A DNA stretch of 55,252 bases from positions 1 to 55,252 of IMG/VR virus record IMGVR_UViG_3300037258_000366; one strand, written 5' to 3'. Every line of letters starts with the position of its first letter. The stretch's first letter is position 1. A model generated the notes under the pieces. It was not told the origin of the DNA and did no database searches. It saw only the letters and a list, made by a program, of their open reading frames with translations. Origin of the DNA: a virus (Duplodnaviria; Caudoviricetes). Below are positions 2,271 through 34,629 of the stretch, piece by piece. A program made the position numbers and the translations under genes.

Positions 2271-5200
2271 TTATGTAAACCCGTTAGCCACCGCCACGTA
2301 TAGCCACTGACCTATAGTAGCGTTGTAAACAAAGCCTATCAGATCAGTGTACCCCGAAGAGGTTGACAGTGAGGGTGGCGGAACGACTGACGGGAATTGG
2401 TAACCTGCTCCCCAGTTAATTAAGTATGGGCCACCGGAGCCCTGAGTTATCTGGAATAGTATTCTCTGACCGTCAGACGGACTCGATGGAGTAGCTATAG
2501 TGTGAGAATTTCCTGTGAGCGTAAGCCTGAAGTCATTTCCTAAGGCCGAATTTACGCTTATTGTCGATGCATCAGTAAGTGTTACTACATTAGGTGCCAC
2601 CGGGCTAATTGTAAGATCAATCCACGTCCCTCCCTTATAAACGGCGAGTGGTGTCATTGAGCTAACAGTATAACTGTTACTAAGATCGATGTAGTCTACC
2701 AGAACTACGTTGGCTGTACCAACAATGGAGAATCCTGATGTGTATGAATTCTGCATTGTGAAATTTGTAAACATTGCTGAAACATCAGCGCCGTTGCCGT
2801 TAAGCCGCACGAGAGGGGCATATGATGGTGACGTTCCTATAGCAAGTTTACAATTGCTGAACTCCCATCCTGCCGCACCTCCAGTGATATTGATAAGATA
2901 ATCATTAGGAGGTGCCGAAGAAGGCCACCCATTCCACAAAACATCTCGGAATGCTGTCAGTACAGTTGATGATCCGCCAGATCCGATAACAAAAATCTGA
3001 GCATTCTGAGACTGAATTGCCTGGCGGGTTTGCTGTACAACGCCAGTCTCATAGAAGTCGCAGTAATTTCCGCCAGGTTGTGCCCCGAAAAGCTGGTATC
3101 CGGAAGATGAATTGTAGTATCCGTAATAACACAGGCCAGCTGAGCAGTTAAACAGCACATGATCATACTGATTGCCTGAGATTCCATTGCCGATGTAGAA
3201 TCCGTACTGCCACGGTCCAGATGTTGTCCATGATCCTAATGTCTGTCCGCCGTTTACAACAATATCTATTAATGTTGATCCGTCAACCTGATATGCGCCG
3301 CCGATCGCACCAATTCTTATTCCTGCAGTAAAGTTCATATTTCTTACACGAATACTTCTCAGTGTGTTCCCGCTTGTTGAACGGCCAGCAGTAGATGGGT
3401 TCCATGTCAGGTAGAAAGCGTTGGGAGCAGTTCCGGTTCCCGCTATGGCGAACTTCTCGAATGTACTGTCAAGAGATCCATTTACAAATATTACAGCATT
3501 CGTGAAGCTAGTCCCTGTTGAGAAGATAGTTGTTGCCGTTGTGCCTGAACCAACTAGCTGAAAACCTAACACAGATACGATGTTAATATCTGATGAAATA
3601 TGATAGCTACCCGCACTCATATGTACCGGGCCGAGAGCATAAGCACTGCTTGTAGTCTGGTTGTATCCGATAAATGCTGACTGTGCTGAGAGATTACTTG
3701 TAGCAGCAGCAGCTACAGTATAACCGACTCCTGGTGTAACTGCAGTTATATGAGAATATCCGGTTGAGAAATTGGTGCTGTTAATATACAAACCTAGATC
3801 TGTTGACAGCGCTGAGGGATTAGTTACAGTTGTAGAGCTAGCTGTGTATCCCAGATTGTTGTAGAACCGACCGCCCAATGAAGCAGCAATTGTTTTATTG
3901 AACGCAAGCGTTGAATCTGTATTTCCTGTAGGATCAGCACCAAAAGCATCAACATCAAACCATGGCTTACCGGATTCAAAGATTTGGTTTCCTGTCCATG
4001 TGTTGGCTTCGGGCAGAAGTCCTACGTTGTTATTAACTCCTCCTATAATTACTGTATTCAGCGGAACATCAAGAAGAGGAGATCCACTCTCACCGCCAAC
4101 ATTTTCCAGTATCAGCGCTCCATAGGTTTCCGGGCAGTATACATGATATGCCCCCGTACTGAAACCCCCGCCTATGGTACCGCTATTGCGGATCGTAATG
4201 TTATTGCAGTAAAGTCCTGATCCGGTTCCCTTAAGAAGCTGAAACAAGGAACCTGTGAATGTCGTGGTATCGTAGCATTGAACATTCTCGATGACAGAAT
4301 AGCTGCATCCTGCCAGAGTGATAACTCCGGCATCACATTCTTCACAGTCGATATCCCTGAAAATGTTAGCCGCCTGCCACGCATCTCCCGTGCATTCGAT
4401 ATGGAAAAAAGTAGACGTTTGACTATGTGCCCCTTGTAGTACTAACGGCCCCCAAGTATTCGTGTTAATCGAGCTGGTCGGACCCACCATGTAAACAGCC
4501 GGGAGGGTGGCATTCCCGGCCATGTCCATGATTGTATGGCCACCAAAGTAACAGCCGATCCACGTCATACTTGTACCGTAAATGATGCAGTGACTTGAAC
4601 TATTGGACACGAACGCGCAGTTATTGACAACCCAGCCACCGGCTCCGGATGGGCCTGTTCCAAAGTCAAAAATATGACCGGCATCACACGTAAGGGAAAT
4701 ATTGGTCATCGTGAGATTGGTGATGCTCCCGCTATTTATCTGGAACATATCCGTGGTTTCATTTCGGATCTCACCGAGAGCCAAATCTCCCCCCTCAGCA
4801 GAGGCACCGAGAAAGGTGACATTGCTGTAAAGAGTCATGGGACTTGTGGTCTTAAATTTATACGTTCCCAGGTAAACGGTCCCGCCAACAGCACCGGCTG
4901 CTGTAATCGCATCTTGTACAGCGGTAGTATCATCTGTTAGGAGTGCTCCTCCAGCACCGTAATCCATCGGACTGAAAATATTACCAATGTGAGCAACGAT
5001 TAAATCTTCAGCATTAGTTCTGTTAGTCGTTTCAACAGACACTGCAGAATCTGCATAAGCAGTCGTAGCTATCTGAGTATTATTTGTCAGAGGAGAAGCA
5101 GTCGGCGCCGCAGGAATTCCTGTGAATACTGGTGAAACGATTGGTGCTGCACCTAAAGCTGTGCGAGCGGCAGATGCTGAAGTCGCAGAAGTACCACCTT

Positions 5201-18208: not shown

Positions 18209-18209
18209 T

Positions 18210-18306
18210 TGGTGGGCAGTGCCTTATTCCCCGATTAGATCATAAGGACCGGCAGACATGATCACATCTGTTATTCCGGCACGCCTTTCTTCAAGGGGCA
18301 CTACCA
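18210..18306 (-). ncRNA. Candidate structured RNA (multi-helix junction ending in CCA)
   Basis: Fills the whole Ser-Lys spacer; helices agtgc/gcact, cctt/aagg, ccgg/ccgg with inner caga/tctg, ccttat/ataagg. Confidence 0.4.
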
Positions 18307-18308
18307 CG

Positions 18309-20115: not shown

Positions 20116-20144
20116 AGGCTACCAGAGACACGGGCCGTTGTCAA
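20116..20144 (-). promoter_or_regulatory. Principal-sigma promoter
   Basis: TTGACA-N17-TAGCCT. Confidence 0.75.
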
Positions 20145-20160
20145 GGGTCAATCTTCCCCG

Positions 20161-21759
20161 CTAGTCTTCCCAGGGCCAGCGAGCCTCTCTGCCGCGCTCT
20201 ATCAGCGGAATCATGCTGAATGTCGCATCGGACAAACCGCCCAGTTCATGCCTTGTCCCGACACCCGAAGGCATCATCGACTTGGAATAACCGCCAAGAT
20301 TGAATCCGTATAGATAAGTGTTCTTAGGAACAACATTATCTACTGATCCATGCCAGTCAAAGAAAGCCTGGCCATCTGTGAAAATAACTACCCTCTTTGC
20401 ATCCGCTCCAAGAGTACGACGCACTGAAGCTACTGTCTGAGTACCGTAGCCAACTTCACCATTTCTGCTGTAGAAGTGTGCTACTGCCTTAAGGACAGAA
20501 GAACCAGTTGGTATTACATACTCAAATACACCGTCAGCGTACCCGAACAATCTCACTCTTCCCTGATTCTTCCTGGCAAGAGCTACACCGAACAATCCGG
20601 CAGCCTCATGACAAGCCAGTTTGCTCTTGTCAGAAACGCGAGACTGCATGGAACCAGAAGTATCCACATAAATATAGGTTATTCCTGGCAACTCTGGGAT
20701 ATTCTGGGTTGAGTAATCAAGCGCCTTCTCCAGAGCCTTGCCGTAGTTAAGGCTGTTCAGTTCCTTGTAGGCAGAAACAAACCTGAAAGGGAACTGTCTT
20801 GACTTAGCCACGATCTCCGGGTTGGACAGCTTCTCGCAAACAGCCTCAACTGAAGCGTCAGAAATTCCCGCCTCATCGAAGTTACGAAGGTTTCTCAGAG
20901 TAGCCATATACCCCATTGAAGGTATCATAGCTTCCCATAGATCATCCTTAGGAACTCTTGATCCTGCCAGGGAAAGAGCATCTTCCCATGTCATTCCTGC
21001 TGCCTTCAGGTTCTCTGCGTCCAGAAGAGCCTCAGGATGATTTACTGCCTTCAGGCGAAGACCTTCATTAGCAGAAATCATAGGAAGCTGATGTCCAGAG
21101 CCTTCCCAGACATTATTGAATCTCCTGGCCTGAGAGAAACTGTAAACAGCAGCCTGATTCTCACCAACTGGTGATGCATGTACCATGTTCAGTACATCAG
21201 CGAATCTCCAGCCATGAGAAGCTGTGTCATACTTCAGCAGCGAATACTCGTTGTAGAGTCTTGCACATGCATCAGAAAGACCGCGCTTAACAGGCATTGG
21301 AAGAGGCTTGCCATACTTGGAAACCCAGTAAGCAAGAAACTCTCCTGGCTCATCCGCTCTCTGGCATACAGCCCTGATAAACTTCCTGTTCCATCCTTCG
21401 GTGCCCTGCATATTATCAGTCAGTCTTGCACGTACGGCAATTGCTGCTCCTGTGATAGAAGCAGTACGTATGTTTCCTGTACCACGCAGCCAGTTAAGGA
21501 ACCCAAGCATCCACTTAGGATCTTCTCTTGCTACAGCAGTAATCAGCTTCTCCCAGCGCACTTCTCTCTGGCTTGCTGACTCGTAGAAAGTCTGCTCACC
21601 GAAGAAATAGTTCACGCCCAGAAGGAATAGCTCGGACTTAGTCTCGCGGTCAAAAGCAATGCCACCCTCACAAGTGACTGAGCTTCCTGCTATTGACTTA
21701 ACTGGCGAGCGTCCTGCTGGTACTGTCCCTGGAGTGTTTAGCTTAGACATATTATTCAC
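20161..21759 (-). CDS. rsr: Ro60/Rsr-family TROVE domain protein with C-terminal vWA domain
   Basis: SELFLLGV..FFGEQTFYE, RADEPGE, MTWE, MGYMATLRNLRN, SRQFPFRF (TROVE); VDTSGSM and FTDGQ (MIDAS); Y-RNA-like array immediately upstream. Confidence 0.92.
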   Translation of the reverse strand: MNNMSKLNTPGTVPAGRSPVKSIAGSSVTCEGGIAFDRETKSELFLLGVNYFFGEQTFYESASQREVRWEKLITAVAREDPKWMLGFLNWLRGTGNIRTASITGAAIAVRARLTDNMQGTEGWNRKFIRAVCQRADEPGEFLAYWVSKYGKPLPMPVKRGLSDACARLYNEYSLLKYDTASHGWRFADVLNMVHASPVGENQAAVYSFSQARRFNNVWEGSGHQLPMISANEGLRLKAVNHPEALLDAENLKAAGMTWEDALSLAGSRVPKDDLWEAMIPSMGYMATLRNLRNFDEAGISDASVEAVCEKLSNPEIVAKSRQFPFRFVSAYKELNSLNYGKALEKALDYSTQNIPELPGITYIYVDTSGSMQSRVSDKSKLACHEAAGLFGVALARKNQGRVRLFGYADGVFEYVIPTGSSVLKAVAHFYSRNGEVGYGTQTVASVRRTLGADAKRVVIFTDGQAFFDWHGSVDNVVPKNTYLYGFNLGGYSKSMMPSGVGTRHELGGLSDATFSMIPLIERGREARWPWED

Positions 21760-21975: not shown

Positions 21976-21994
21976 TTTAAGTATTAAGTTTTAC

Positions 21995-22134
21995 GATGCT
22001 AGAGAATAATTCGGAAGCAGAAATTTTAGCGCTCTGCCGTTGAGCTACATCCCGAAGAAGCCGGGATGATAGGAGTCGAACCTATAACCTCTCGTTCCAT
22101 AGACGAAGTAACTGATTCCTGCACATCTAGCATC
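21995..22134 (-). ncRNA. YrlA-like Y RNA C carrying a complete circularly permuted tRNA domain
   Basis: gatgctag/ctagcatc; CAGTTACTTC; then anticodon-like arm, T arm atagg-TTCGACT-cctat, closed acceptor catcccg/cgggatg, D arm gctc-AACGGCA-gagc. Confidence 0.85.
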
Positions 22135-22145
22135 TTAAGTTTTTA

Positions 22146-22218
22146 AGGGCGCACTAAACCTTAGTGCTATACCGTCCGTTCCCAGGCAGCTATCAGGACT
22201 TGAACCTGAAATCTCCCT
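22146..22218 (-). ncRNA. Permuted tRNA-like element D without a Ro stem
   Basis: aggg...T arm tcagg-TTCAAGT-cctga, imperfect closed acceptor, D arm gcac-TAAGGTTTA-gtgc, g-ccct. Confidence 0.6.
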
Positions 22219-22225
22219 CGCTTGT

Positions 22226-22360
22226 GTACCAGAGAATCGTTTTGATCGCGGAGTTTGTATTCATAACCTCCGGGTTTTGAGCCCGGCGCTCTATTGTTGA
22301 GCTATAATCACTATTTTTGGTGTAATTAATGAAGTAACCGTGATCATTCACATCTAGTAC
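22226..22360 (-). ncRNA. Y-RNA-like gene E carrying a tRNA domain opened at the T-loop (anticodon CAA)
   Basis: gtactag/ctggtac; CGGTTACTTC; acceptor taattac-ACCAAAAATA-gtgatta, D arm, anticodon arm ccggg-CTCAAAA-cccgg, T stem atgaa/ttcat. Confidence 0.8.
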
Positions 22361-22434: not shown

Positions 22435-22440
22435 ATATTT

Positions 22441-22547
22441 GTACTTGAGAATAAGATGAACTCCGGAATAGTGTGCCTTTACAGCATCTATTTCTAGATG
22501 CCTTGGAATCGAACCAAGAAGTAACCGTTGTTCTTCACATCAAGTAC
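22441..22547 (-). ncRNA. Y-RNA-like gene F (T arm plus closed acceptor minihelix)
   Basis: gtacttga/tcaagtac; CGGTTACTTC; cttgg-TTCGATT-ccaag; gcatcta-GAAA-tagatgc. Confidence 0.8.
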
Positions 22548-22550
22548 TAG

Positions 22551-22822: not shown

Positions 22823-22884
22823 ATGTTGCCGATGAGATTGGAGCAGACTGTGCATGCATATCGATTCCCTCACCGGCAAGTACT

Positions 22885-22913
22885 ACTGTACCACAAGGCC
22901 GACTCTGTGTCAA
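22885..22913 (-). promoter_or_regulatory. Principal-sigma promoter for the tRNA/Y-RNA/Ro60 operon
   Basis: TTGACA-N17-TACAGT with TG extension. Confidence 0.8.
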
Positions 22914-22935
22914 GCCCTTTCTGAAATTTCTTTTT

Positions 22936-23946
22936 CTAGCCCAGAACCAGAAGACGTGTGCCTTTTATAAGCTTGCGGTTAATACTAGTTGACTGCACGA
23001 AAATAGTGTAGTCTCTGTAGTCTTCTGGCTTAACATCAACCTTCTCATCAGGGAGACCGAGCAACTGCCTGGCATTTCCTGTGTATACTGTCCCAGTTGA
23101 GTTAACCATGATGGCTAGCTGCTTCTGCGGCTGAATTGTTTCCTTCTTCATTAGCTGATAATAGCCAGTTCCTACCTTGTAAGGCATTCCTAGCCTGTCT
23201 GTGAAGAAATCATCAATCCTTCCGTCTGCCATAACGTTCTGAAGCGAGTAAAGATAATTCGGCAGGGGTGTAAGACTGCCTATAATCTCTGAAACAGACA
23301 CTTTGCTGAGCTTGAACAGGCTTCTGGTGCCTCTTATACCCTTAGTTCTGTTGACCATGAAGGTTTCAGAGGTTCTTCTGATGGTTTCTCCTACTTCAGC
23401 GAGACCATCAGTAGCAGAAGTGTTCCATACTGCTATGTTTTCTGCGGGAAAACCGAACTTTTTGGCCTCATGAACCCCAATTTGGTCAGGAACAAAGCCT
23501 GCAAGGGTCCAGTGATCAGGCAAACCCGCAATTTCAGCCGCTAGCTTGCCTGGTTTGGCCCTGCTATCGTTTTCTTTGCCGTCCGTGAGCACATAAACGA
23601 GAAAGGAATGCTCCCCATACTTCTCTGGAGTCATCTTCAGGTCCGAAATAGCCAGTAAGGTAGCGTCTATGAGCGCTGTAGTGCCGTATGCTTTGTACAA
23701 TCCGGCAATGCTTGGCATTCTCAGAACGTCTTTGTCGTAAATCAGGCACTGGATATTGTCCGGGTAGTCAAATGTGTATACTGTTATCCGTGTTTCCTGA
23801 TCTAGCTCCTTAGATCTCTGTGCTAAGTACTTAATCTGATTGTCCGCCACCTTTACAACGTCATCGGTGCGGTAATACATGCTTCCTGAGCCGTCAAGAA
23901 CTAATACAATGTGATTAATGTAGTTCGGGATTGCCGTGCTTGTCAT
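22936..23946 (-). CDS. von Willebrand factor A (vWA) domain protein
   Basis: VLDGSGSM MIDAS, TALIDA, LTDGKEN. Confidence 0.85.
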   Translation of the reverse strand: MTSTAIPNYINHIVLVLDGSGSMYYRTDDVVKVADNQIKYLAQRSKELDQETRITVYTFDYPDNIQCLIYDKDVLRMPSIAGLYKAYGTTALIDATLLAISDLKMTPEKYGEHSFLVYVLTDGKENDSRAKPGKLAAEIAGLPDHWTLAGFVPDQIGVHEAKKFGFPAENIAVWNTSATDGLAEVGETIRRTSETFMVNRTKGIRGTRSLFKLSKVSVSEIIGSLTPLPNYLYSLQNVMADGRIDDFFTDRLGMPYKVGTGYYQLMKKETIQPQKQLAIMVNSTGTVYTGNARQLLGLPDEKVDVKPEDYRDYTIFVQSTSINRKLIKGTRLLVLG

Positions 23947-24921: not shown

Positions 24922-25536
24922 TTAGTAAGCAGTTGTTGATGTAATGATGCAAGCTGACATGGAAACCTGGAACACCATTTCCGGCTGAGGCATGTTACCC
25001 GAAGGCGATGCTGTTGTATACCCGGGAACCTGCACTAAAACTGGCTCAGAAGGATACTGAGTTACTGGCGCTGTCTGGCCAGTTTCTGTAAGCACTGCTC
25101 CTGAAGGATTACCAGCAGAGCCTGTTAGCGAGTTAGGAGTAATTACTACCTTGTAACCGCCATATTCTGTTGTTCCGTCCCAGGCTGTCGTCTGAAGCTG
25201 GATAATGTAATCTAGTGTAGGCAGAGCTTGTGCTGTTGATGATACATAACTTCCCGTGCCATTGTTCGCGCCGAAAATTCGCGCTGGAACGACACCCTCT
25301 TTGTCAAGAATGGCTGCTATATAAAGCGTAGAGCCTGGAGTGTACACGTACTGCCCGTTAGTCGGGAAAGTAGTACTCAGTGTGTATGAATACGGTGCAG
25401 CATTAGTAGGAACAGGGCTGTTAGATCCGCTAGTTGTCAGACCTGTAGGGTAAAAACTTGGCACTTTCGTTGACTGGAAGGCGGTATTCGCTACTGGCCA
25501 GCCCGAAAGGAAAATAGCTGTTAGTGTTGATGACAT
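24922..25536 (-). CDS. Putative virion decoration/structural protein
   Basis: 204 aa, T/S/P/G-rich; late-promoter motif upstream. Confidence 0.6.
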   Translation of the reverse strand: MSSTLTAIFLSGWPVANTAFQSTKVPSFYPTGLTTSGSNSPVPTNAAPYSYTLSTTFPTNGQYVYTPGSTLYIAAILDKEGVVPARIFGANNGTGSYVSSTAQALPTLDYIIQLQTTAWDGTTEYGGYKVVITPNSLTGSAGNPSGAVLTETGQTAPVTQYPSEPVLVQVPGYTTASPSGNMPQPEMVFQVSMSACIITSTTAY

Positions 25537-25757: not shown

Positions 25758-25770
25758 GAAACTCCTAAGG

Positions 25771-25843
25771 TAGCGCTACTGGGGGTCGAACCCAGACTGA
25801 AACCCTTTTAAGGGGTCGTCCTCTGCCATTGGGATACAGCGCC
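25771..25843 (-). tRNA. tRNA-Leu(TAA), short variable loop
   Basis: gaccc-CTTAAAA-gggtt. Confidence 0.88.
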
Positions 25844-25844
25844 G

Positions 25845-25918
25845 TGGCCTGCTTGGGATTTGAACCCAAACTGTACACTTTTTGAGAGTGTCTTCTCTGC
25901 CGATTGGAATACCAGGCC
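25845..25918 (-). tRNA. tRNA-Leu(CAA), short variable loop
   Basis: acact-CTCAAAA-agtgt. Confidence 0.88.
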
Positions 25919-26054
25919 AAGAATTTGGTGAGGTGATTATTTCAGAATAGCGCCTGTAGCCTATTTCAGCTATCCGAGTATGCGTTGTGCTTTATAGACC
26001 TCACACACAACTTTTTCATGTCCCTCACCCTAACAGGAGCGACCTGTTAGTTTG

Positions 26055-26207: not shown

Positions 26208-26576
26208 TCAGCTAGTTGGTGCTGCTGGAACTAGTGCAGTAACGCTTGTAACTGCTGAATCCAGCGCAGTGTCTGCGCTTTCTACAGATGTCTGTAGTGT
26301 TGCAGCCTGTGCCGCTAGAGCATCAATTGCTGATGTGTCTACAGGCTGACCATTAGCAAGAGCGGCAGCAATTGCTGTCACTGCTGTGTTAATGTCAGTT
26401 ACCTGAGTAGCCACATCTGTAAGAACTGTCTGTACCTCAGTGAAGAGGCCAGAAATTGCTGTAGCATCTGCTGCAAGATCTGTCTGAACTGTCATGATTT
26501 TATCAACTTTCTCGTCTATAGACTTTACAATTTCTAGAATTTGGCAGAGTTCATCATGATTACGCCGATTTCTCAT
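26208..26576 (-). CDS. Ala/Thr-rich helical (coiled-coil) protein
   Basis: ORF track; amphipathic A/T/D/V composition. Confidence 0.6.
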   Translation of the reverse strand: MRNRRNHDELCQILEIVKSIDEKVDKIMTVQTDLAADATAISGLFTEVQTVLTDVATQVTDINTAVTAIAAALANGQPVDTSAIDALAAQAATLQTSVESADTALDSAVTSVTALVPAAPTS

Positions 26577-26600
26577 AATCTCCCTTTCTTATAGAACTCG

Positions 26601-26674
26601 TACCTATAGAGGGATTCGAACCCATCACTGTCATGTTCCTAAGACATGTGCCTCTGCCGTTGGGCTATATAGGT
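26601..26674 (-). tRNA. tRNA-Leu(TAG), short variable loop
   Basis: catgt-CTTAGGA-acatg. Confidence 0.88.
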
Positions 26675-26679
26675 ATAGC

Positions 26680-26878
26680 GCCCTGACTAAGTTCCTTCAT
26701 CGACTCAGGGCTTTATACTGCATCTTCATGACAGTGAAGATAAGGAACGCAGTATCCGGCCTCTACGGGATATACCGGATCAGTAATGAGACTGTCATCT
26801 CTCCCGTCTGCTTCTTTTGGGTTATTGACTAATAGGACATCAGCTATTTACCCGTATAGTCTAGCAGTGAAAGACTGC
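26680..26878 (-). ncRNA. Candidate multi-kissing-loop/pseudoknot ncRNA
   Basis: Several hairpins plus perfect long-range pairs gttcctt/aaggaac, tgacag/ctgtca, acggga/tcccgt, ctgct/agcag; fills the whole Tyr-Leu spacer. Confidence 0.6.
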
Positions 26879-26879
26879 G

Positions 26880-26963
26880 TGCCAGCACTTGGATTCGAAC
26901 CAAGGAAGGATATTTCCAACAGTTTTACAGACTGCCCGCTTTGAGCCGCTTGCATATACTGGC
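26880..26963 (-). tRNA. tRNA-Tyr(GTA)
   Basis: gcagt-CTGTAAA-actgt; long variable arm. Confidence 0.92.
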
Positions 26964-26967
26964 AAGT

Positions 26968-27034
26968 ACAGAGCGCGAGATCTTCGGAGGGAGGAGGAAA
27001 ACTCACCAGTGTTAGCTGGTGTCCCGCGCTCTGT
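26968..27034 (-). ncRNA. Candidate small RNA with an exposed C-rich (anti-SD-like) tract
   Basis: 10-bp terminal helix acagagcgcg/cgcgctctgt starting at the predicted TSS; internal CCTCCTCCCTCC. Confidence 0.45.
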
Positions 27035-27040
27035 GTGACT

Positions 27041-27069
27041 AGCCTACCATGAGGCCAGCCGTTTGTCAA
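27041..27069 (-). promoter_or_regulatory. Principal-sigma promoter
   Basis: TTGACA-N17-TAGGCT. Confidence 0.75.
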
Positions 27070-27089
27070 GGGATTTTATTCCCTAAATT

Positions 27090-27467
27090 TTAGCCGTAAG
27101 CTGTTGATGCCAGAAGGATTATAGCCATCTGGTCCAGGTAAATCTCACTATTTGCTGAAGGTGTATCGGGTGATCCTGCTGCCCATGAACCAAGAGTGAT
27201 GTAGAATCCGCCAGTCTTTGTGTTACCGGCTGCATCAACAATTGATACCTGCGTAACTTTTACAAGCTTGGGCAGGGCAATCGTTGATCCATCTGTGTAG
27301 TACAGCTTAGCTCTTGACTCACCATCAAGATATCCGGCTACGTACTGTGTACCAGACTGAGTGTAAACTCCGCTGGTGAACGCAAAAGAAGCCGCATCTA
27401 CATCAGTCAGTCCTGCTGTTGAGCCGAACTGAGGATAGTTAGACAAGTTAGCAACTGTTAGTGCCAT
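27090..27467 (-). CDS. Putative virion structural protein
   Basis: 125 aa; late-promoter-like motif at 27487..27512. Confidence 0.6.
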   Translation of the reverse strand: MALTVANLSNYPQFGSTAGLTDVDAASFAFTSGVYTQSGTQYVAGYLDGESRAKLYYTDGSTIALPKLVKVTQVSIVDAAGNTKTGGFYITLGSWAAGSPDTPSANSEIYLDQMAIILLASTAYG

Positions 27468-27497: not shown

Positions 27498-28010
27498 TCA
27501 GTATTCTACCATAGTAGCGAAATGCTGTCTAGCTATCTCTATGTGTTCTGGCTGGAGTCCATTATTTGGATGGACCTTGATGTGCTTCACGATTTTTCTT
27601 CCTTTCGGGCCTAACCAGTAGTCTATTCCTGGTTCATCATCAAACCAGACCGATCCTGTGACTCCCCATTGCTTACAATGGTCTATAACTCCCCTGGATT
27701 TCACTTCAGACACTGATTGTTCGCGTGTGTAAGGCTCAAAATGCACTACAGGAAGCTTTGGGAGACCAATTTTGGCGCCAATCTCTGCGTCTGCATCATC
27801 TTGCCATGTCGTTGCCCATGCCAAATTGGCTCCAGTTGAGGCAGATAGCCCTAAAAGCCACTTTGCATGTTCTTTATTGAGTGTCAGAGAGTAAAATATT
27901 CCATCGTACTCAGATTTACTCGATTTTCCCTTAGCCGGAAAGTAATCCGGCCCTGGATTGGAACCTAAAGCGTTGAGTACGCCGTCTACATCAATAAATA
28001 TGTATCTCAT
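27498..28010 (-). CDS. HAD-superfamily phosphatase (RNA-repair-associated type)
   Basis: IDVDGVLN, WATTW and WFDDE motifs. Confidence 0.8.
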   Translation of the reverse strand: MRYIFIDVDGVLNALGSNPGPDYFPAKGKSSKSEYDGIFYSLTLNKEHAKWLLGLSASTGANLAWATTWQDDADAEIGAKIGLPKLPVVHFEPYTREQSVSEVKSRGVIDHCKQWGVTGSVWFDDEPGIDYWLGPKGRKIVKHIKVHPNNGLQPEHIEIARQHFATMVEY

Positions 28011-31004: not shown

Positions 31005-31033
31005 ACTGTACCACGCTGACGGCCTGTTGTCAA
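31005..31033 (-). promoter_or_regulatory. Principal-sigma promoter
   Basis: TTGACA-N17-TACAGT. Confidence 0.8.
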
Positions 31034-31056
31034 GCCCTTTTTATTACGAATTAAAG

Positions 31057-34583: not shown

Positions 34584-34612
34584 AGACTACCACAGCGGCG
34601 GCCCGTTGTCAA
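34584..34612 (-). promoter_or_regulatory. Principal-sigma promoter
   Basis: TTGACA-N17-TAGTCT. Confidence 0.75.
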
Positions 34613-34629
34613 GACTTCTTTTTAATTTT

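Follow-up and report, generated by a model that had tools for sequence, protein, structure and literature searches.

Does the gap between two neighbouring tRNA genes of a soil phage hold an RNA of its own? The window analysed here is a whole virus record of IMG/VR (55,252 bp, linear, with completeness estimated at 48%). A preliminary description of it had singled out the spacer between tRNA-Tyr and tRNA-Leu(tag) as a candidate structured non-coding RNA with four loop-loop or loop-bulge pairings. The six segment pairs named there are exact reverse complements (Table 1), the element does fill the Tyr-Leu gap, and the absence of a credible ORF holds as well, i.e. there is none of at least 20 aa inside the spacer on the tRNA strand. 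Both flanking tRNAs lie on the minus strand, so that the letters read in that description have to be reverse-complemented to give the RNA; RNA positions 1-204 run along the minus strand, position p corresponding to + coordinate 26879 - p.

Thirty tRNA genes are detected by ARAGORN in the window. They span 16.8-34.5 kb and are all on the minus strand, which also carries nearly all the genes of the window. The large terminase is 55% identical to its counterpart in Streptomyces phage BRock, which has its own tRNA array with an "RNA-binding protein" inside. Homologues of the 125-aa protein (40 of similar length, 54-99% identity) include several on ~116-kb contigs; the phage group of the element is that of ~116-kb soil phages, distant kin of BRock. 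Among phage GenBank records tRNA pieces alone match, and a close relative was not found. Besides the TROVE/Ro60-like, vWA and HAD proteins, the window also encodes phosphoesterases. The product of orf122 has a weak Pfam NPV_P10 match, and this gene is probably carried by the same transcript as tRNA-Leu.

Two further observations concern this gene setting. The type of Leu tRNA varies among close relatives: the three tRNA-Leu genes of the window (26600-26674, 25769-25843 and 25844-25918) are all 75 nt long without long variable arm, and the tRNA-Leu(tag) found at the same position in L003, L006, L010, L012 and L015 is 82-86 nt long with a long arm. Two small proteins without family matches (24922-25536 and 27090-27467, minus strand) are interspersed in the tRNA array and have similar C-terminal motifs (…ITSTTAY and …LLASTAYG). 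Database homologues of 149-199 aa match the shorter one, many over ~60% of its length, and the two proteins may be paralogues.

Table 1. Features of the window around the Tyr-Leu spacer (+ coordinates of the 55,252-nt stretch).
Feature	Position	Strand	Details
TROVE/Ro60-like protein	20161-21759	minus	
vWA protein	22936-23946		
orf122 (122 aa)	26208-26576	minus	ORF list; start 23 nt past tRNA-Leu
tRNA-Leu (TAG)	26600-26674	minus	75 nt, without long variable arm; ARAGORN; Rfam tRNA 48.2 bits
Tyr-Leu spacer	26675-26878	minus	204 nt, between tRNA-Tyr and tRNA-Leu(tag)
Tail between H4 and tRNA-Leu	26675-26679	minus	5 nt; sequence
Conserved core	26680-26807	minus	RNA 72-199, ~128 nt; model match to L006
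H4	26705-11 with 26680-86	minus	loop part pairing with bulge 26691-97
H3 inner	26735-41 with 26722-28	minus	loop 26729-34
H3 bulge	26742-48	minus	7 nt, GUUCCUU
H3 outer	26749-53 with 26717-21	minus	ACUGC/GCAGU
H2	26775-80 with 26754-59	minus	
H1	26788-26801	minus	stem 78-81 with 88-91 (RNA); loop 26792-97
PK1	26802-07 with 26765-70	minus	ACGGGA (RNA 72-77) with UCCCGU (RNA 109-114)
Variable 5' domain	26808-26878	minus	RNA 1-71; holds CUGCU/AGCAG
tRNA-Tyr (GTA)	26879-26963	minus	CCA not encoded; ARAGORN; Rfam tRNA 45.9 bits
Leader hairpin, promoter to tRNA-Tyr	26964-27036	minus	MFE -31.2 kcal/mol, z -5.68, 0/200 shuffles
Sigma-70-like promoter (predicted)	27041-27070	minus	-35 TTGACA 27069-27064, 17-nt spacer, TG-extended -10 TAGGCT 27046-27041
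125-aa protein gene	27090-27467	minus	directly upstream of tRNA-Tyr
HAD protein	27498-28010		RNA-repair "Swiss Army Knife" type
Promoter family sites	20120-20145, 22866-22920, 27045-27070, 31009-31034, 34588-34613	minus	
Exact segment pairs of the preliminary description	26680-86/26705-11, 26691-97/26742-48, 26715-21/26749-55, 26729-34/26792-97, 26765-70/26802-07, 26808-12/26863-67		given as + coordinates

By itself, the sequence of the window spacer is not distinguishable from chance. On the minus strand it folds with a minimum free energy (MFE) of -57.9 kcal/mol (z -1.65), a value reached by 11 of 200 shuffles; z is -1.15 for the plus strand. Of the 16 other inter-tRNA gaps between 50 and 450 nt long, 8 show a more negative z than this one. 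The shuffle check that had been suggested for the pairings gives a divided answer: the spacer contains 14 complementary 6-mer pairs vs 5.3 in shuffles, of which a fraction of 0.009 reaches 14, but 54 of 1080 windows of equal size on the same contig also hold at least 14. Most of the noted "loop-loop" pairs turn into ordinary nested helices in the MFE fold. In the local MFE fold the 7-nt loop-bulge pair alone stays unpaired, i.e. is tertiary; at least one unpaired complementary 6-mer is left after MFE folding in a fraction of 0.070 of 500 shuffles. Elsewhere in the array, the gaps 25919-26053, 22435-22549 and 18209-18307 (minus strand) fold with z of -4.19, -3.94 and -3.39 vs shuffles. The second of these gaps includes a T-arm-like repeat (22502-22518), together with 55 nt that directly repeat the sequence preceding tRNA-Cys.

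Judged by these folding statistics of a single sequence, the feature would be dismissed; it is the comparison with one diverged relative that rescues it. A covariance model made from the window spacer alone (R1) was searched against 125 kb made up of the window, BRock and the loci of the relatives. It has one match besides itself, at 4591-4763 of L006 (24.8 bits, E 1.2e-5), inside the Tyr-Leu spacer; with filters off, the next best matches do not exceed 4.3 bits. A second model in which H2 replaces PK1 matches L006 with 22.0 bits. L006 is the closest accessible relative, with a 125-aa protein 74% identical to that of the window. BLAST aligns the two phages over genes and some tRNAs only, at 67-80% identity, and aligned nothing from 27094 to 26120, a stretch including tRNA-Tyr and tRNA-Leu(tag). 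None of the other non-coding stretches aligns between them by BLAST. The two phages are thus so far apart that neutral sequence should be unalignable.

Between the window and L006, 30 of the 48 proposed pairs are unchanged and 12 are changed on both sides yet remain Watson-Crick: three in H1, two in H2, two in the inner stem of H3, three in H4 and two in the bulge-loop pairing. The others are one U-A become U-G, two pairs broken by a single change, one broken by a double change and two lost through indels; in L006, H4 has two U-U mismatches and PK1 has lost one pair. Pairing is thus kept in 12 of the 13 doubly changed pairs, for which a binomial with p = 1/3 gives 1.7e-5, a value that errs on the optimistic side, since the structure guided the alignment. 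We set the helix boundaries and the register of L006 while consulting the model alignment. Between H1 and H2 the indels could not be placed by MAFFT, and an R2-based alignment set the 5' strand of H2 one base off; the H2 pairs were counted via explicit coordinates.

Pairs were also counted in the alignment made by R1 (A4), leaving out H2 because its 5' strand is misplaced there. It comprises 42 pairs; 96.3% of their cells pair, and in 10 of them both partners have changed. In slid controls, in which the 3' partners were moved by 1-3 columns, 34-43% of cells are paired, with 0-3 double changes. A shuffle control of A4 has little meaning, as it consists of two rows. The columns of the kiss and of the bulge-loop pairing were not fitted, since neither pairing is in R1. 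Folded alone, the L006 spacer is predicted by MFE to form H1, H2, the inner stem of H3 and H4, with a z of -0.87.

The architecture was also written as a descriptor: a hairpin loop kisses that of a second, bulged hairpin, and the bulge in turn pairs with the loop of the hairpin that follows. It has one match in the window (both strands), one in the L006 spacer and one unrelated match in the 304 kb searched, and none in 20,000 dinucleotide shuffles for either spacer. The descriptor was written post hoc for the window; the L006 match is independent.

In the resulting fold the loops engaged in tertiary contacts are invariant or co-vary, and the junctions vary in sequence and length. The loop of H2 carries the 3' strand of PK1, and PK1 and H2 thus form an H-type pseudoknot in which H1 is inserted. 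The loop of H1, UGACAG, is the same in both phages on stems that differ (GAGA/UCUC in the window vs CACG/CGUG in L006), and the strands of H2 are AUCCGG/CCGGAU vs UACCGG/CCGGUA. H3 follows H2 directly with zero linker. Its inner stem is AUCUUCA/UGAAGAU vs AACUUA/UAAGUU, the loop CUGUCA being the same in both; the kiss between this loop and that of H1 makes 6 bp (duplex -6.3 kcal/mol). The bulge of H3 (GUUCCUU vs UUUCCGU) is complementary over 7 bp to the loop of H4 (AAGGAAC vs GCGGAAA) in both phages: bulge positions 1 and 6 are changed (G to U and U to G) and their partners match (C to A and A to C). The stem of H4 is GCCCUGA/UCAGGGC in the window vs GUCUUAGCC/GGCUUUGAC in L006. Three junctions measure 7 vs 10, 4 vs 8 and 5 vs 7 nt, and their sequences differ too. 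Few unpaired nucleotides are kept in both, just AGG before H2 and AUAA after H3.

The four long-range pairings of the preliminary description do not fare alike in this comparison. The loop-bulge pairing, the kiss and ACGGGA/UCCCGU are kept in L006; CUGCU/AGCAG is not, and no counterpart of the 5' third of the spacer that contains it was found there. In L006 the place of this 5' domain is taken by 32 nt that contain a hairpin of their own (8 bp), and ~110 further bases follow H4 before tRNA-Leu. What had been described as the second copy of a "loop-to-bulge module" is in fact the pseudoknot, in which the loop of the CCGG hairpin pairs with an upstream single strand.

The element belongs to none of the families represented in Rfam 15 (4227 models). 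At gathering score the whole window gives 28 matches, all tRNA; 26560-27100 searched at E up to 10 gives nothing inside the spacer, and the relatives' loci, including the L006 spacer, give no match at E up to 0.5. The claim of a structured non-coding RNA outside known families is supported by these searches together with the pairings kept in the diverged L006. Three other identities were considered and rejected. Known ribozymes and riboswitches have no Rfam match in the spacer, and a pseudo-tRNA remnant would leave a tRNA-like match, of which the spacer has none. As for a coding sequence on either strand, the antisense ORFs (34 and 20 aa) do not have a frame in common and the indels measure 1-4 nt, both of which speak against it.

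That GOLLD and ROOL lie near phage tRNA islands, as the preliminary description says, is stated in PMC12286853, which presents them as phage and prophage RNAs, often near such islands, with pseudoknots and kissing loops, many GOLLD members exceeding 800 nt. The element resembles them in lying between two of 30 phage tRNA genes, a likeness of context and not of membership, and in having several pseudoknot or kissing-loop pairings. Unlike them it has a spacer of 204 nt, a core of ~128 nt, an unrelated fold and no shared sequence, and the ROOL and GOLLD models have no match in the window. The species I and II RNAs of T4 are described as small RNAs from the primary transcript of a tRNA cluster (PMC2330249). 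The element is likewise encoded within a phage tRNA gene cluster, a likeness by position alone, T4 being an unrelated phage with a different host group. To our knowledge neither these two T4 RNAs nor GOLLD and ROOL have an assigned function. H-type pseudoknots with loop-loop kisses occur in small ribozymes and riboswitch aptamers, which the element resembles in size and density of tertiary pairings; unlike these, it lies between two tRNAs and not in a 5' UTR, without ligand- or cleavage-related context. Finally, PMC10690425 reports 8495 unnamed candidate RNAs from IMG/VR with a pipeline that required at least three IMG/VR regions; our scans of IMG/VR found fewer than three for the element.

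Bacterial Y RNAs are described in PMC4201824 as lying within 4 kb of a Ro60 gene on the same strand, with GNCGAAN0-1G near the 5' end, within the stem that binds Ro. As with YrlA, the element would be a non-coding RNA of a Ro60/TROVE-encoding genome, in an RNA-repair context and on the same strand; unlike Y RNAs, it has no tRNA-like module, no GNCGAAN0-1G motif and no RF02553 match. The window does contain an RF02553 match at 22028-22092 (29.8 bits, under the gathering score of 69), where T-arm, hairpin and D-arm follow each other in permuted order on the minus strand just upstream of the TROVE gene; the YrlA-like candidate as a whole is placed at 22028-22130. The region 21980-22360 (minus strand), just upstream of the TROVE/Ro60-like gene, contains further tRNA-like pieces, namely a weak tRNA match at 22061-22130 and, at 22185-22311, 127 nt that Rfam scores as "tRNA" (40.4 bits) but that are missing from the ARAGORN calls. 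These pieces are probably one or more phage Y RNAs.

How would the spacer be transcribed? A promoter that we predict to be active lies ~80 nt upstream of tRNA-Tyr. The window contains four copies of the motif CTTGACAA-N14-17-GGTA, always on the minus strand, vs 0.04 expected, and one of these is at 27045-27070. The looser TTGACA-N15-18-GGTA is present between the 125-aa gene and tRNA-Tyr in six of eight relatives (L003, L005, L006/L007, L010, L015 and L016) and absent from L004 and L012/L013; in L009 it follows the 125-aa gene and the contig ends there. No terminator or promoter was found inside the Tyr-Leu spacer. Co-transcription with the tRNAs is plausible because of this conserved promoter upstream of tRNA-Tyr. 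Near-consensus promoters of the form (C)TTGACA-N17-TG-extended -10, all directed along the minus strand, split the tRNA region into several transcription units. The leader hairpin between promoter and tRNA-Tyr has a counterpart in L006 (4432-4513, z -3.93) with a similar basal stem, ACAGAGCG.GGG being common to both, and the leader interiors of L006 and L016 have sequence stretches in common.

To determine how widely the element occurs, an alignment of the 125-aa protein (A1) was used as query and recovered two loci from IMG/VR and 12 from JGI metagenomes. In eight distinct relatives the sequence extends to the tRNAs, always in the order Tyr(gta) then Leu(tag). Their Tyr-Leu spacers measure 205 (L003), 98 (L004), 10 (L005), 274 (L006), 10 (L010), 25 (L012), 79 (L015) and 183 nt (L016), so that three of the eight have just 10-25 nt. 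MAFFT and BLAST found no similarity among them, all BLAST matches having E >0.1, and the 79-205-nt spacers of L003, L004, L015 and L016 are unrelated, without descriptor or model match. The search for homologues yields the compensatory changes of L006 on the one hand, but on the other the element is absent from seven of the eight relatives that keep the Tyr-Leu adjacency. As most spacers are short or unrelated, the element is not constant in the phage group, and its absence from these seven shows that it is dispensable. L007 is identical to L006 over the Tyr-Leu spacer stretch, and the carriers amount to two independent lineages only, the window and L006/L007. In L016 the unrelated 183-nt spacer (547-729) is itself strongly structured (z -4.45), and it has two collinear 9-mers in common with the L003 spacer (4573-4777). 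The Tyr-Leu gap may be a site where lineages carry different structured inserts.

Other searches did not add a third lineage. An exact 24-mer of the spacer has no match in IMG/VR, peptides of the HAD protein used as query gave none, a homologue of the 125-aa protein (P0002) returned L004 only, and BRock has neither Tyr-Leu adjacency nor a model match. Degenerate patterns drawn from the window/L006 alignment gave 1, 62 and 15 matches in IMG/VR and 12 in GTDB genomes. None of the 62, 15 and 12 is matched by R1 at E up to 1. The single match (L017), judged from its context and not by the model, is a chance one: it lies in GC-rich coding sequence with no tRNA and without the upstream motifs. A tRNA is likewise absent from L107. 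A1 searched against GTDB genomes revealed no third lineage. With TerL as query IMG/VR gave L018-L020, and the only TerL-derived contig that reaches the tRNA region (G001) has Tyr then Arg and no model match. One other soil DNA run contains an identical copy of 26575-26903, which therefore offers no variation to use; the listed sequencing runs carrying the spacer include no RNA run. In this second soil run one contig matches 26575-26604 and continues into a different, tRNA-like sequence, so a co-occurring related strain differs from here on.

Would an ordinary inter-tRNA spacer drifting neutrally, with chance complementarities and an L006 likeness that is residual homology, account for these data? 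The single-sequence statistics at chance level (z -1.65; 54/1080 windows; 8/16 gaps) and the missing or unrelated element in 7/8 relatives are what it predicts. But pairing persists in 12/13 doubly changed pairs and few changes (three) are single-sided, the opposite of independent drift; moreover, pairing drops to 34-43% in slid controls, the architecture appears in 0/20,000 shuffles and the two phages have no further non-coding stretch that BLAST aligns. We regard neutral drift as improbable. A structure that works in cis only, as a folding insulator, processing guide or nuclease block of the precursor degraded after cleavage, would suit a transcription unit whose promoter is conserved and whose leader is strongly structured, in an array where the three other gaps mentioned above are structured as well (z -3.4 to -4.2). 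Its distances to the tRNAs are nevertheless not kept (71 nt from Tyr in the window vs 32 nt in L006, and 5 vs ~111 nt to Leu), relatives manage without it, and a three-fold tertiary lock would exceed the need of an insulator. We regard this reading as unlikely.

Small ribozymes typically have compact folds with several pseudoknots, and a patchy, accessory distribution in phages would also suit a new class of self-cleaving ribozyme helping to cut the tRNA precursor. We find this very improbable: even searches at E up to 10 give no match to a ribozyme family, conserved unpaired nucleotides are few (the AGG and AUAA above), and cutting is already explained by RNase P and 3' processing. Scarcely credible is a Y-RNA-like partner of the phage Ro60/TROVE protein. 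The TROVE, vWA and RNA-repair-type HAD proteins are encoded in the window and the element is on the strand of the TROVE gene, but at E up to 10 neither YrlA nor Y_RNA matches the spacer, which has no CGAA anywhere in its 204 nt, let alone GNCGAAN0-1G; the element ends at 26675, 4.9 kb from the start of the TROVE gene at 21759, which is adjoined by a far better candidate (the YrlA match of 29.8 bits, E 0.001). A last alternative leaves the fold intact and makes the UGACAG/CUGUCA pairing intermolecular, giving dimers or larger rings as miniatures of ROOL and GOLLD assemblies, whose chains are bridged by kissing loops according to PMC12286853. Both loops are invariant in the two lineages on changed stems, and covariation is blind to the difference between pairing within and between molecules. 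Pairing within one molecule fits equally well and, for a domain of 128 nt, is the simpler solution; we doubt strongly that the kiss is intermolecular.

We consider it likely that the Tyr-Leu core is a selected RNA structure, and the element is probably a new structured RNA (new relative to Rfam 15) of restricted distribution; it is a lineage-restricted accessory element. The explanation that we favour, with reasonable though not high confidence, is a self-folding domain; our leading idea for it is that it would be released, stable and active through its fold. The minus strand of 26680-26807 would encode a compact ~128-nt RNA that folds by itself, its four hairpins H1-H4 being tied by three tertiary pairings (PK1, the 6-bp kiss and the 7-bp bulge-loop pairing). 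It would be transcribed from the promoter at 27041-27070 as a unit leader - tRNA-Tyr - element - tRNA-Leu - orf122, and freed by the RNase P cut at the 5' end of tRNA-Leu together with 3' processing of tRNA-Tyr. The freed RNA would then persist, stable and defined in shape, and act through its fold by binding a protein or another partner. Antisense pairing would not be its mode, because every loop is used internally. That it acts in trans once released is a tentative proposal, which we hold as possible but short of likely.

A bolder reading seems quite unlikely to us: a new minimal class of tRNA-island RNA that oligomerises via UGACAG/CUGUCA, or a new catalytic or nuclease-blocking module between tRNAs. 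If the former were true, ~128-nt molecules would be linked head to tail through the invariant loops, and the defined homo-oligomers so formed would be small analogues of the ROOL and GOLLD cages; if the latter, the module would protect or mature the phage tRNA supply when the host attacks RNA.

Returning to the self-folding domain, its predicted fold has three explicit tertiary contacts, each separately testable, and at ~130 nt it is small enough for complete mutate-and-rescue probing, crystallography and scaffolded cryo-EM. Phage tRNA islands are known to hold the large RNAs GOLLD and ROOL and, in T4, small RNAs of the tRNA transcript. As the phage also has Ro60/TROVE, vWA and RNA-repair-type genes, the element could offer a tractable way into the roles of structured RNAs in phage tRNA biology and RNA repair.
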